Assembly: GCA_963848965.1 (NCBI GenBank)
Contig: CAWKFG010000004.1
Span: 256,001 to 320,000 of the forward strand
Length of the DNA: 64,000 bases
Source: an uncultured bacterium
Lineage (GTDB): Bacteria > Babelota > Babeliae > Babelales > Babelaceae
Reading direction: 5' to 3'
Shown here in pieces: positions 10,866 through 41,482 of this stretch (position 1 is its first letter; each line of letters begins with the position of its first letter). Under the pieces are notes generated by a model. That model did not search any database, had not been told where the DNA came from, and was given only the letters and a program-made list of their open reading frames with translations. The translations under genes and the position numbers were made by a program.

Positions 10866-10970
10866 TTATCAAAAGGACTGGCAATGTCAGTCCTTCTACG
10901 CTGTATATTTTTTCTATTCTTTGCTATACTTTTTCTAAGCACTTACAGTTATTTTTTATATAGGCATATT

Positions 10971-12407
10971 ATGGATACAACTTCTATTCGTGTGCGCTTT
11001 GCGCCATCGCCCACCGGTTTTATGCATTTAGGAAACGTACGAGCGGCACTCATAAATTATTTATTTGCACATCAAAAGAGCGGGACATTTATTTTACGCA
11101 TCGAAGATACAGACGCCCAAAGAATGGTCGATCCTATGGGTGCTCGTATTATGGAAGATATTTCTTGGCTGCATCTAACGTATGACGAAGGTCCTCAAGT
11201 AGGAGGTCCTTATGAACCCTATTATCAATCACAACGTACACAGCTCTATACTCGCTATCTCAACGCAGCCATAGAAAAAAATCTTGTTTATCGTTGCTTT
11301 TGTACTATAGAAGAGCTTGAAAAGAAGAGGCAACGCCAGCTTGCACTAAAACAGCCACCTCGGTATGATCGCTGTTGTCTCCGCTTCAGCCCTGAAGAAA
11401 TTTCACAAAAACTTTCTTCTCATATCCCTTTTATCTGGCGCTTCAAGCTTGATCATGCTAAACAAGTTTCGTTTTACGAACTTGCTCGCAAAACTATGCA
11501 TTTTGAGCTTAAACATTTTTCTGATGTACCAGTAACGCGAGAAGACGGTAGTTTCACCTTTCTCTTTGCCAACTTTATAGACGATGTACAAATGAAAGTA
11601 TCGCACGTCTTTCGGGGTGAAGACCATCTGAGCAACACTGCAGTACAAGTAGCTATGTACGAAGCATTCAATGCTCAAGTACCAACTTTCTGGCATCTGC
11701 CAATTATTACTAACACCGAAGGCAAAAAACTCTCAAAACGTGACTTTGGCTTTTCACTAACAGATCTTAAAAATGAAGGTTATTTACCCCAAGCTATCTG
11801 CAATTACATTATCCTCATGGGTGGCACTTTCCAAAAAGAAATTATGACACTCAGTGAACTTACTCAAGCTCTCAACTTTGACTCTATAACTTCAACGAGC
11901 CAAATAAAATACGATGTAGAGAAGCTCAGATGGGTTAATCACCAATGGATTATGCGATATGATACCAACGAACTCGCCAAACTCTGCAGACCGTACCTTG
12001 ACTCTGCATACTCCACCGTTAACACTCTCTCTGATACTCAATTAGCTACGCTCATCTCCTACATCCAGCCAGAAATTATTACCCTCAAAGAGAGCATCGC
12101 TGCCCTCTCATTCTATTTCACTGTACCTATACCAGAGCCCACTCTCTTTGCAGAGTACCATCTTGCATTGTACCAGCCCCTTTTGCATACACTTATACCA
12201 GAAATTCGTCCTCTGCTTGCACAGCCTGAACAAGCTGTTAAACACTTACAAGCTGCATGTAAAGCCCAAGGAGCTTCTATACGCGAGGTCTTCACTCTTA
12301 TACGCATAGCGCTCACTGGAAAGCCTCAAGGTCTCGGCATCAAAGAGCTATTTGCTCTGCTTGGCCCTGACGAGTCCTACAGGCGCCTAACTACGCTGCT
12401 TAGCTAA
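10971..12407 (+). CDS. gltX: Glutamate--tRNA ligase
   Basis: RVRFAPSPTGFMHLGN, LRIEDTD, RGEDHL, KKLSKR; probable start ATG at 10971. Confidence 0.95.
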   Translation: MDTTSIRVRFAPSPTGFMHLGNVRAALINYLFAHQKSGTFILRIEDTDAQRMVDPMGARIMEDISWLHLTYDEGPQVGGPYEPYYQSQRTQLYTRYLNAAIEKNLVYRCFCTIEELEKKRQRQLALKQPPRYDRCCLRFSPEEISQKLSSHIPFIWRFKLDHAKQVSFYELARKTMHFELKHFSDVPVTREDGSFTFLFANFIDDVQMKVSHVFRGEDHLSNTAVQVAMYEAFNAQVPTFWHLPIITNTEGKKLSKRDFGFSLTDLKNEGYLPQAICNYIILMGGTFQKEIMTLSELTQALNFDSITSTSQIKYDVEKLRWVNHQWIMRYDTNELAKLCRPYLDSAYSTVNTLSDTQLATLISYIQPEIITLKESIAALSFYFTVPIPEPTLFAEYHLALYQPLLHTLIPEIRPLLAQPEQAVKHLQAACKAQGASIREVFTLIRIALTGKPQGLGIKELFALLGPDESYRRLTTLLS

Positions 12408-12411
12408 TTGC

Positions 12412-12817
12412 TAGGGGCTTTGCCCCTATAACCCCAGCAGGGTCACAACCTTGCACCCTCTGGTATCTGCTCAGAGCTAACGCTCCTCGCCCGTCTTTTT
12501 AAAGCAAAAAATCATGCTGATTTTTTGCAATAGCAGTCCCTACGGGAATCTCCGTTCCAGGCGGAACGTGCCTGTTCCGATGACATTGAGTACGAATAAC
12601 CCTTTGGTAGTCTCATATCAACGATGATTCTGTAAACATGGTGTCGTCAGCGAGGGTGTGTTCCACCCTCGATGGAGACTCGCGTAGCGGCGTGCAACTG
12701 CAAAAAATCGGCACGATTTTTTGCTCTAAAAGAACCAGCGCAAGAGCGTAGCTCTGAAGCTAGAAAGCGGGTTGCAAGGGCGGGCCCTTGCCGGGGGTGT
12801 TGGGGGCAGAGCCCTTA
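12412..12817. repeat. 406-nt imperfect inverted doublet of a multi-hairpin GC-rich cassette
   Basis: Left arm ~12412-12587 aligns with the reverse complement of right arm ~12640-12817; each arm holds six small hairpins in the same order. Confidence 0.9.
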
Positions 12818-12846
12818 ACCTCACAAGCATTGCTTCACGGGAAGAA

Positions 12847-13101
12847 TTAAACAGTCTCAGCAGGATCAAGGAGGCGATTGGGTAATTTAACAAAGTCTGT
12901 TATGATGCCTTCATGCAGGTAGTACTGCATAAGAGAAAGAAAGATGTGTTCTTGGGCTGGAGGTACAAAAAACTCGAATGTGCGTGTTTGCTTGTTGAGT
13001 GTCCGGTCGAATGCGACGTGCTCAAAGCTGCGGAGCGTAGCTACTAGAAACCAGGTATCTTTTTCTTTTACATGAGCTTGATAATAAACACAATACTGCA
13101 T
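12847..13101 (-). CDS. Small conserved hypothetical protein (DUF4911-like)
   Basis: 84 aa; FLVATLRSFEHVAFDRTLNK..FEFFVP pattern. Confidence 0.6.
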   Translation of the reverse strand: MQYCVYYQAHVKEKDTWFLVATLRSFEHVAFDRTLNKQTRTFEFFVPPAQEHIFLSLMQYYLHEGIITDFVKLPNRLLDPAETV

Positions 13102-13187
13102 AAAATGGATCTTAATTTTTTAAAAATTTAGGGTAATATAAGAGCATACTTTAGTATAAGGGAGTTTTTTTTAAAGAGGAAGTGAGC

Positions 13188-14393
13188 ATGACAAAAGATA
13201 ATTCACACAACAAGATTGGTTTATTAACTGCAACGATTATATGCATGAACTCAATGATAGGAGCAGGGATTTTTACTACGCCTGCACAGCTAGCACTTAC
13301 TGCAGGTCCTGCTGGCATTATAACATATCTGTTTGTCATTGCTGCTGTGCTTTTTATGGCACTATCATTAGCACGAGTATCAGCGTTATATCCGCAGGAA
13401 GGGTCTTTTTATGTGTATGCTAAGGCCTGGGGTGGCCACACTATGGGCGTTCTGGCTGCAGGTTCTTATGTTGTTGGAGTTTTAATTGCATTGAGTTTAA
13501 TTACGCAGTTAGCCGCTGGTTATTTGCATGAACTTGTACCTGCATTGAGTGTAAATATGTGGGGCATAGTACTTGTAAGTTCAATTGTAGGGCTCAATGT
13601 TATTGGCGTACGAATGGTCCAAGTTGGACAATTTATTTTGCTCGGTTGTACGTTATTTGCACTTTTAGGAACTACGGTGCTGGGATTAACACACATAAAT
13701 TGGAGTAATTTAACGCCTTTTATGCCGAGCGGCTGGAGTTCTCTGGCGGGTGCTGTTCCTACAGCAATTTTTGCCTTTTTTGGTTTCGAGTCTGCTGCTT
13801 CTCTTTTTAGTGTTGTAAAGAATCCTGAGAGGAATGTTCCTCGAGCATTAACGTATTCTATTTTGGCGGTAGGTGCCATCTATTTAGCGTTTATTTCCTC
13901 AATTATTTTATCAATTCCGAAAGAAGCATTTACGAATGCCCGAATGCCTATCTCAGAAGCGATTATAAAGCTGTTTCCTCAGTATGCTTGGCTTGCAAAA
14001 GCAATTGGTATAGCAATTCTTACAGGGTTCTTGGGAGTACTCCAATCTATGATGTACTCGGTAAGTGCTCTTGCATTCTCGTTCTTTAAATTATTGCATA
14101 ATAAGTATGCTCGAGCAATTACACGATCTGAATATGGTTTTCAGGCAATTATAGTAGGTGTAGGAGCTTTAGTACTACTGAACTTCTTTACTATTAAAAG
14201 CTTAGGTCTCTTCTTTAATCTTACTGCAGTAGGGGTAGTATTTGCGTATGCCTCTTCTATTGTGACTCTATGGCTCAAAGGTCATGATAAGACGATAGGA
14301 CAGAAAATAACAACGTTCTTAGGTCTTGCAACTGCAGCAGGGATATTTATAATTGCCTTTAATGGGTTACTAGGAGAGCTTTTGAAATCTTAA
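13188..14393 (+). CDS. APC-family amino acid permease
   Basis: MNSMIGAGIF, GSFYVYA, FAFFGFES, KNPERNVPRA; about 12 hydrophobic segments. Confidence 0.9.
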   Translation: MTKDNSHNKIGLLTATIICMNSMIGAGIFTTPAQLALTAGPAGIITYLFVIAAVLFMALSLARVSALYPQEGSFYVYAKAWGGHTMGVLAAGSYVVGVLIALSLITQLAAGYLHELVPALSVNMWGIVLVSSIVGLNVIGVRMVQVGQFILLGCTLFALLGTTVLGLTHINWSNLTPFMPSGWSSLAGAVPTAIFAFFGFESAASLFSVVKNPERNVPRALTYSILAVGAIYLAFISSIILSIPKEAFTNARMPISEAIIKLFPQYAWLAKAIGIAILTGFLGVLQSMMYSVSALAFSFFKLLHNKYARAITRSEYGFQAIIVGVGALVLLNFFTIKSLGLFFNLTAVGVVFAYASSIVTLWLKGHDKTIGQKITTFLGLATAAGIFIIAFNGLLGELLKS

Positions 14394-40687: not shown

Positions 40688-40709
40688 GTTTTGACCTAAG
40701 GTAATAAAA

Positions 40710-41044
40710 GGTAGCTTATAAGCCAGATTCTGTGCTGCATAAAATTCTTATGCAGTGGCAACCATCTATCTTTGCGACATACCCGCATGTTTAAACCGGA
40801 ACGGAAAACCGAACATGCCTATTTTGTCTTGCTCCAGGTAGGGTTTACCCCCCTATAACATTGCTGCTATAGATCGTACGCTCTTACCGCACGTTTTCAC
40901 CCTTACCACATAATGTGGCGGTTATTTTCTGTGGCACTGTTCCAGAGACTTACGCCTTCCTTAGTTGCCTAAGGTACCTTTTCCGCTTGGAGTCTGGACT
41001 TTCCTCTCATTACCTCACGGTTTTGAGCGATTGCCTAAGCTACC
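40710..41044 (-). ncRNA. rnpB: RNase P RNA (bacterial)
   Basis: Minus strand: P1 GGUAGCUU...AAGCUACC, GAGGAAAGUCCAGA, AGUGCCACAGAAAA, GGUAAACCC, GGAGCAAG, ACAGAAUCUGGCUUAU. Confidence 0.96.
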
Positions 41045-41482
41045 CTTAAATAATGTATACACTAGTATTAATACTATTATAAAATGGATTACAATACTTT
41101 GCAAGCTAAACATGCAAAATAAAGGCCTATTAATAAGCCCATAATCAATAACTGCATAATGGATTAGAATCCCACATAAAGCAAGAAGAGCATGCACTAG
41201 TGGATTAAGATCTATTGTAGAACGAAGGTAAAAAGCTGCCATGGTTAAAGGAACCATAACAATAAGGTCTACTCCACAACAACCATTATAGAGAAATGAT
41301 TGAATAACAACTAAACTACCAAGAAAAAAATACTCAAAGACAGGAAGTTTTTTAAAAAGAGCCGTGTAGTACATTGAACGCGTAAAATAATAGGTAGGGC
41401 AGGCAAAAAAGCCCTGAAATACAAGGTCAAGAAAGAAAAGAAAGAGTATTTTCGCGTAATGAAGAACGAGCACCGTATACAT
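41015..41482 (-). CDS. Integral membrane protein, possibly MreD-like
   Basis: About 5 TM segments; divergent from PBP1A; last 30 nt overlap the 5' end of rnpB. Confidence 0.5.
   Translation of the reverse strand: MYTVLVLHYAKILFLFFLDLVFQGFFACPTYYFTRSMYYTALFKKLPVFEYFFLGSLVVIQSFLYNGCCGVDLIVMVPLTMAAFYLRSTIDLNPLVHALLALCGILIHYAVIDYGLINRPLFCMFSLQSIVIHFIIVLILVYTLFKGSLGNRSKP

Follow-up and report, generated by a model that had tools for sequence, protein, structure and literature searches.

A probable interspersed palindromic repeat built of inverted hairpin arms in a bacterium of the Babelaceae

What maintains a dense series of DNA hairpins in the spacer behind a glutamyl-tRNA synthetase gene? The question is raised by positions 12412-12817 of a 64,000-nucleotide stretch of DNA from an uncultured bacterium of the Babelaceae (GenBank contig CAWKFG010000004.1, positions 256,001 to 320,000 of the forward strand), here called the window. 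The 406-nt element found there consists of two diverged arms placed head to head, each carrying the same series of six hairpins (H1 to H6). A first-pass annotation described this doublet, with coordinates that were confirmed here, and proposed that it serves as a two-strand priming site or origin for single-stranded DNA. The present analysis points elsewhere. The element is probably, if far from securely, one copy of an interspersed palindromic repeat specific to this lineage, of the kind known as the repetitive extragenic palindrome (REP), the bacterial interspersed mosaic element (BIME) or the REP doublet forming hairpins (REPIN).

The element is not confined to the window. BLASTN and three rounds of nhmmer identified 16 arms at nine loci on two contigs of the genome to which the window belongs (G000; 1.73 Mb, five contigs, 88.7% complete), and a covariance model of the whole arm (R1) recovered exactly the same 16 arms. 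These form seven doublets and two singlets, a 7:2 ratio whose numbers are small for comparison with a random model. The seven doublets span 383-406 bp, giving a repeat unit of ~385-405 bp. All nine loci are intergenic, and their neighbors are unrelated to each other, including gltX, ftsH, rplU, ftsY, an ATP-synthase subunit gene, a MutS-like gene, permease genes and ankyrin genes; no transposase genes were found among them. At seven of the nine loci, the 3' end of a gene lies 3-84 nt from the element, and two loci lie between divergently oriented genes. Many dispersed copies are what the first-pass annotation had itself named as speaking against an origin, and the 16 arms at nine loci answer to this, though not to the target-site duplications that it named with them.

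The copies are modular. Five doublets share an asymmetric plan in which one arm joins an alpha head to an A body and carries all of H1-H6; the second arm joins a beta head to a B body, with different H1, H3 and H5 stems and a deletion of H4. H4 is missing from the six B-type arms and from the arm at C4:43477-43655 (C4 being the contig of the window). The copy at C4:43477 has its center inverted with respect to its tails, which is what recombination between inverted arms would produce, and the singlet at C4:551589 combines a beta head with an A tail. Canonical copies are 74-84% alike overall, and A and B arms are ~50-55% alike. Each arm ends outward in two tandem units of GGGT followed by a short G/C palindrome (H5 and H6); its inner part comprises the A6/T6 hairpin H3, the GNA-triloop mini-hairpin H2 and H1 with its invariant GTTC loop. 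The terminal motif GGGRC-NNN-GYCCC occurs 14 times in G000, in every case (14/14) in or beside an element.

That the local hairpins are maintained by compensatory change, as the first-pass annotation held from the window copy alone, is supported across the 16 arms. Covariation was measured on the aligned 16 arms, the six helices having been annotated manually, and compared with 500 shuffles, whose counts overstate independence because the arms share descent. Standard pairs fill 92.8% of 600 cells vs 81.1±0.9% in the shuffles, 16 of 39 pairs have changed on both sides vs 10.3±1.5, and 70 cells are changed on both sides vs 23.4; none of the 500 shuffles reached any of these values. Sliding the partners by 1-3 columns as a control reduced pairing to 37.5-56.8% of cells. 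Helices H1, H5 and H6 are paired at 97-100%. H3 scores only 79.5%, because the MAFFT alignment offsets the A form from the B form by two columns; taken singly, each is a perfect hairpin. An independent RNAalifold prediction gave 28 pairs, of which 16 show compensatory changes. Folded locally, the arms yield this hairpin series again, with an nGTTC loop in H1 (invariant in 16/16 arms), a C-GNA-G triloop in H2, an 11-12-bp A6/T6 hairpin in H3, a GAGC/GCTC stem in H4 and G/C palindromes in H5 and H6; the loops of H2, H3 and H6 are triloops. In the nine alpha heads, H1 alone has at least six distinct stem sequences, each perfectly paired.

The arms also show a strand preference. The strand that reads from center to end folds more stably than its reverse complement in 16/16 arms (summed minimum free energy -1178.7 vs -1075.0 kcal/mol), and local folding places 60 G·U pairs on the outward strand vs 18 on the reverse complement, with nearly equal G×T products; neither the 16/16 nor the 60-vs-18 count represents independent trials, because the arms share ancestry, and this tempers the interpretation proposed here. 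The first-pass idea of one copy per strand agrees with this bias, which is opposite to selection on mRNAs entering the near arm from the flanking genes. As single-stranded DNA, the window copy folds back on itself (-106.2 kcal/mol, z -9.5), with 117 inter-arm pairs under RNA parameters. Under the same parameters, the other six doublets form 32-66 inter-arm pairs vs 83-104 local pairs; in canonical copies, local hairpins outweigh the fold-back because the arms are only ~50-55% alike.

Beyond G000, the element is found in a limited set of relatives. BLASTN of the element against 40 relatives, all of other genera, gave no match, and only covariance models reached other genera. At E ≤ 0.01, R1 matches 5 of 40 further genomes of the family, with 16 matches in G007, five in G054, three in G022 and one weak match each in G019 and G052. 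At E ≤ 1, G007 yields 48 R1 matches, many of them overlapping -/+ pairs that represent head-to-head doublets, and doublets are likewise present in G022 and G054. Arms from three genera (44 aligned tails) have in common their outer ~50 nt, of the form GGGTy-[palindrome]-GyGGGTy-[AAGGGCAGnGCCCTT], in which a near-invariant GGGT precedes both palindromes of 15-18 nt. Interiors vary between genera, and most of the six examined carry a long A-tract/T-tract palindrome. A second covariance model, R2, was built from the 44 arm ends and searched in 151 genomes sampled from the class, G000 included. It finds the end module in 12 of them, that is, in 11 of the 150 others, with 36 matches in G007, 31 in G121, 18 in G022, nine in G155, two each in G017 and G009, and single matches in five further genomes.

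The setting of the repeat differs between carriers. Within 12 kb of G007 (G007:C2:48500-60500), four doublets of 250-340 bp each occupy an entire intergenic spacer, one of them beginning at the base right after a stop codon, and no open reading frame (ORF) lies between paired ends in this segment. In G121, the end module forms tandem arrays with a 76-nt period (e.g. G121:C1:1258723-1261782). These arrays repeat the pattern 'GGGT + hairpin, GGGT + hairpin' with loops of GTAA and GAA; a repeated segment of ~330 nt is interspersed among them, and similar arrays lie at several further places on the G121 chromosome. Plasmid and phage collections contain no match to the element. Exact-pattern scans returned 0 + 5 stretches from genome contigs and ten from metagenome contigs; all 15 fit the profile over the pattern alone and were discarded as chance. 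In the literature on Dependentiae palindromic repeats, and on repeats of the REP and MITE (miniature inverted-repeat transposable element) types generally, none of the titles and abstract openings listed describes the present repeat.

These features suggest how the element could have spread. It would be non-autonomous, moving through single-stranded hairpins recognized by a trans-acting enzyme, as REPs are by TnpA-REP, the REP-associated tyrosine transposase (RAYT); the enzyme would apparently be other than a Y1 transposase. Resident copies may be tolerated or even useful at gene ends, because their hairpins would insulate neighboring transcription units. A substrate of an HUH nuclease or of REPIN type had also been suggested in the first-pass annotation. 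The anatomy fits this part of the proposal much better than it fits an origin, and an HUH/RAYT gene was not detected in G000, G007 or G022.

Several observations weigh against a REP-like mobile repeat. PF01797 (Y1_Tnp/RAYT) has no match in three of the family's four main carriers, G000 (88.7% complete), G007 (93%) and G022 (91%), in a search whose control was positive in 6 of 14 known genomes, an absence that is not proven because the genomes are 88.7-93% complete. Y1 genes are present in 13 of 41 genomes of the family, with a distribution unrelated to that of the element, and in G054 and G017 they lie on other contigs than the element matches listed. The tracking of mobilizing genes covered five families, and the distribution of IS110, YhcG, PDDEXK_9 and DDE_Tnp_1 does not separate the carriers G007, G022 and G054 from their non-carrier congeners G023 and G005. 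None of these four families nor Y1_Tnp tracks the carriers, and no mobilizing enzyme was found among them. Mobility is thus deduced solely from dispersal. A search for an empty site was negative: in G023, a congener of G007, the flanking genes are only about 71-73% identical and synteny ends at the element. Nor was insertion polymorphism seen, four DNA sequencing runs having given a few short contigs over the flanking genes and none over the element itself. The copy number is low, with nine loci in G000, where classical REPs reach hundreds of copies, and the tetranucleotide before the palindromes is GGGT, where that of REPs is GTAG. Further pair types in the helices number 28 vs 27.6 in the shuffles, 259 of 500 of which reach that value. 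Finally, the unique compensated stems of single copies could reflect selection acting where they reside, on an RNA or on a function for the host, and not selection for transposition.

The competing explanations account for parts of this pattern. In a two-strand priming element or origin, each strand would carry a single-strand initiation site, as in the oriV of IncQ plasmids. The geometry agrees with this: with forks leaving the center, the lagging-strand template in each arm would be the strand that folds better. H2 has the C-GNA-G form, and mini-hairpins of this type, which occur in single-strand origins, are highly stable in DNA. This proposal is barely tenable. Besides the 16 arms at nine loci on two contigs, there are tens more in small relatives (0.9-1.6 Mb), and the cumulative GC skew declines steadily along the whole of C4 (873 kb) without changing direction near 268 kb. 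A Prim-Pol gene was looked for and not found, and the element has no similarity to plasmid or phage records. A search for RepB_primase also gave no match, a result of little weight given that its control was equally without match. The nine loci in G000 and the dozens in 0.9-1.6-Mb relatives exclude an origin for practical purposes, and the single-copy, bidirectional priming site of the first-pass annotation is not supported: the window element is not a replication origin. It is improbable, to a far lesser degree, that the element is an ordinary MITE, in other words a DDE-type insertion sequence (IS) reduced by deletion, whose terminal inverted repeats are bound by a transposase that moves it in double-stranded form. 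Inverted ends kept across genera around a variable interior, a size of 214-406 bp, an intergenic, non-coding nature and the presence in G000 of active-looking IS copies (four identical IS5/IS1031-like and three IS110) all agree with such an origin. No consistent target-site duplication is seen, however. The best flanking direct repeats of the seven doublets measure 2-6 nt, similar to a null of 2000 random intervals (median 3 nt), and the one doublet that reaches 6 nt does so as 3% of the null do. The confinement of the terminal motif to elements or their edges in 14/14 cases means that G000 holds no longer parent element with these ends, and no parent IS with the same ends was found in G000 or in 12 kb of G007, a search that was not exhaustive across carriers. 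The ends of the IS5-like copies (GAGCCTATC..., with TNA duplication) and of the IS110 copies are unlike those of the element, the carrier G022 has no DDE_Tnp_1, and end binding on double-stranded DNA leaves the compensatory stem changes and the G·U strand bias unexplained.

An RNA or in-place function stays a rival because of the G·U bias toward the outward strand and the compensated stems peculiar to individual copies. If the copies were multi-copy genes for structured small RNAs, the arm or its H1-H3 part would be transcribed outward from divergent central promoters and would end at the A6/U6 hairpin H3. Both the G·U pairs and the folding energy favor the outward strand in both arms, as outward transcripts would give. 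The loops are invariant and the stems covary; the alpha-type heads have at least six different H1 stems; H3, with its A-tract, stem and T-tract, has the shape of a bidirectional terminator; and the center of one copy carries a promoter-like site directed into its A arm. That site is not conserved in the other copies when the alignment is read by eye, and a scan of 12300-12950 finds neither a sigma-70-like nor a terminator-like site at the window copy. The copy at C4:477235 has two promoter-like sites vs 0.7 expected and one terminator-like site vs 0.9 expected, which is not convincing. No Rfam family (Rfam 15) matches the element at gathering score, and relaxing the threshold to E up to 10 gives three chance-level matches of 14-21.7 bits vs cut-offs of 38-75; ARAGORN found no tRNA or tmRNA. 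Folded alone as RNA, the right arm exceeds shuffles in stability to a modest degree only (z -2.24), and 4 of 200 shuffles are equally stable. The strongest covariation is that of H5 and H6, on the far side of the presumed terminator, other genera conserve only the outer ends around differing interiors, which is the pattern of mobile-element ends, and H2, H3 and H6 carry triloops, which are commoner in DNA hairpins than in RNA. Small RNA genes are accordingly an unlikely explanation. Also improbable, and about as much so as a MITE, is a host-domesticated insulator, whatever its origin, in which the hairpin array acts mainly as a bidirectional transcription stop and 3'-end protector. The proximity of gene 3' ends at seven of nine loci (3-84 nt), the G007 elements that adjoin stop codons and occupy entire spacers, and the retention of structure despite 16-26% divergence between canonical copies all favor such a role, as does the finding that 13 of the 25 perfect A5+/stem/T5+ hairpins of G000 lie inside elements, 22 of the 25 being intergenic. 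Against it, the G/C core of H3 between the A and T tracts is 3 bp long, where other such hairpins of the genome have 6-8 bp; H3 fails the terminator scan (0 in 12300-12950); two loci lie between divergently oriented genes; and the G·U bias is directed away from incoming transcripts. As a secondary role, insulation is compatible with the REP-like explanation.

A bolder reading can be attempted across these alternatives, with low confidence: the element would be either a RAYT-free, REPIN-like substrate of a hairpin-specific enzyme or binding protein of these bacteria, or an outward-directed pair of small RNAs, and in either case a functional component of a very small genome and no decaying junk. 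In the RAYT-free variant, the ~190-nt arms, with their invariant GTTC pentaloop, GNA triloops and two GGGT-plus-palindrome ends, could be kept by selection on the outward single strand at each locus.

The anatomy of the window copy is atypical, in that both of its arms are A-like (A + A') and 63% alike in the 16-arm alignment. Compared with its own reverse complement by BLASTN, the 406 nt give 68% identity (E 2.1e-19), and a repeat search of the locus reported inverted arms of 48 nt (81%) and 36 nt (72%) together with two perfect 11-bp A6/T6 hairpins. By nhmmer and covariance-model matches and alignment, the left arm (type A') occupies 12412-12606 on the - strand and the right arm (type A) 12619-12817 on the + strand, each running head to tail through H1-H6. 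The heads meet in an A+T-richer center (12585-12642) between the two H1 hairpins. On the right (+ strand), H1 (12643-12679) has an extended stem with a TGTTC loop, H2 (12681-12689) reads CGC-GTA-GCG, and H3 (12700-12724) is an 11-bp A6/T6 hairpin with a GCA loop and the bidirectional-terminator shape. H4 (12743-12755) reads AGAGC-GTA-GCTCT; the first REP-like palindrome, H5 (12774-12791), is GCAAGGG..CCCTTGC with GGGT in front, and the terminal one, H6 (12802-12816), is GGGGGC-AGA-GCCCTT with GGGGT in front. On the left (- strand), H1 (12548-12584) has another stem sequence and retains the GTTCC loop motif, H2 (12538-12546) reads CCC-GTA-GGG, and H3 (12504-12528) matches its right-hand counterpart with one pair compensated. 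H4 (12474-12485) is GAGC-GTTA-GCTC, the first REP-like palindrome H5 lies at 12437-12454, and the terminal palindrome H6 (12412-12428) is TAGGGGC-AAA-GCCCCTA. Two further candidate features were dropped. An ATG-started small frame read by eye in the right arm has ACG in place of ATG and an indel in the left arm, and an integration host factor site in the center showed no match by eye to the consensus.

The element has a G+C content of 49-54.5%, vs 31-46% in nearby DNA and 37% in the G000 genome. On its left lies gltX (glutamyl-tRNA synthetase; 10884-12407, + strand), a neighbor and no part of the element, whose stop codon falls 5 nt before it. On its right, after 30 nt, comes an 84-aa ORF on the - strand (12847-13101) with no Pfam match, located in the 365-nt gap before an amino-acid permease gene (13182-14393, + strand), the next clear gene on that side. 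The description of the locus as lying between convergent genes therefore holds on the left, where gltX is on the + strand, and is doubtful on the right, where the only - strand neighbor is the 84-aa ORF and the permease gene is on the + strand. The first-pass remark that no transposase or Rep gene is adjacent holds for the two scanned right-hand ORFs and for gltX on the left. Elsewhere in the window, the sole Rfam match at gathering score is a bacterial class A RNase P RNA (40703-41047, - strand; 227 bits). The segment 48017-60582 (C4:304017-316582) contains, on both strands, seven members of an eight-member paralogue family of ~410-430-aa ORFs; one scanned member is a GT4-type glycosyltransferase, and the cluster is probably a glycosylation island.

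Other repeated features of the genome were recorded alongside. The only turn of the cumulative GC skew on the two large contigs falls at ~586 kb of C1, a candidate chromosome origin or terminus. The four IS5/IS1031-like copies (DUF4096 + DDE_Tnp_1, 273 aa; C1:120282-121103, C1:401517-402338, C2:5733-6554 and C4:83546-84367) have the ends GAGCCTATC, are identical over the ends examined and look recently active; 3-bp TNA duplications are visible in three of them. The three IS110 copies (C1:386059-387003, C1:396709-397653 and C4:451162-452106) are identical across their aligned terminal regions. Partial conservation of the DNA just beyond both IS110 ends (left, ...GGTGyCCCCTrCTT; on the right, ...GGAAC...) suggests that a specific target site recurs, and in the IS110 5' non-coding region a hairpin whose loop contains GTTCC loosely resembles H1. 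Putative ATPase-nuclease paralogues are unusually numerous and dispersed in G000, comprising AAA-ATPase_like + PDDEXK_9 clusters of seven and four members, AAA_14 + DUF4143 clusters of six, five and three, and a YhcG/DUF1016 cluster of six (examples at C4:746196-747866, C4:24434-25615 and C4:217234-218346). They are numerous in relatives too, with up to 16 PDDEXK_9 matches in G054.

The genomes of Dependentiae, which live inside protists, are small and densely packed with genes. In genomes of this kind, one would not expect a structured repeat that occupies spacers (four in 12 kb of one 0.9-Mb relative) and retains its hairpins despite 16-26% divergence. If a non-Y1 enzyme does spread the element, the known ways in which REP-like DNA replicates would be widened; if the element is instead an RNA or an insulator, it would offer a handle on the control of gene expression in a phylum with almost no experimental genetics. 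In either case, the models R1 and R2 provide an annotation tool for these genomes and prevent such loci from being mistaken for origins or unknown RNA genes.

Comparison with known systems places the element nearest to the REP group. The IncQ (RSF1010) oriV, with ssiA and ssiB, and the phage single-strand origins resemble it in their GNA mini-hairpins and in an inverted repeat whose two halves carry hairpins on opposite strands. In contrast to these, the element is multi-copy and chromosomal, has no skew inflection and no plasmid-record similarity, and comes without a detected Prim-Pol gene, the RepB_primase search likewise being without match and its control silent. Bacterial MITEs (Correia, ERIC, RPE and the Coxiella QMITEs) likewise are small intergenic elements without coding content, whose inverted ends are conserved around an interior that varies, and occur in an obligate intracellular lineage; the element differs from them in having neither a target-site duplication nor a parent IS that shares its ends.

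The likeness to REPs and BIMEs of Enterobacteria, Pseudomonas and Stenotrophomonas, including the REPtron, is closer. In one account, a REP is a 20-50-nt palindrome with a conserved tetranucleotide in front, and a BIME is a REP joined by a linker to an inverted REP, with tandem clusters also occurring (PMC8266576). The element matches that description in its short, G/C-rich palindromes behind a conserved tetranucleotide in intergenic DNA, in the inverted pairing around a linker at 7/9 loci and in the tandem clusters of G121; its palindromes of 15-18 nt fall slightly below the 20-50-nt range given there (PMC8266576). Both kinds of repeat combine modules as mosaics and keep their stems by compensatory change. 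The element departs from REPs and BIMEs in having two palindromes at each end plus four inner hairpins on ~190-nt arms, and its copy numbers are far below those of E. coli or Pseudomonas, G000 holding only 16 arms. From the REPtron and REPIN-RAYT systems it is set apart by the tnpA-REP/RAYT gene, typically flanked by REPs there and not found in G000, G007 or G022. Typical REPINs are several times shorter than the present element, and the dominance of local hairpins over the fold-back in canonical copies is a further difference from them. Because RAYT was tested for and not found, the element is filed as REP/BIME/REPIN-like and outside the RAYT-REPIN system; our verdict is a new REP/REPIN-like family. 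With REPINs, described as inverted REP doublets predicted to form hairpins in single-stranded DNA or mRNA (PMC3116915), it shares the inverted doublet as the repeated unit (seven doublets, two singlets) and the predicted folding of the whole unit back on itself as single-stranded DNA.

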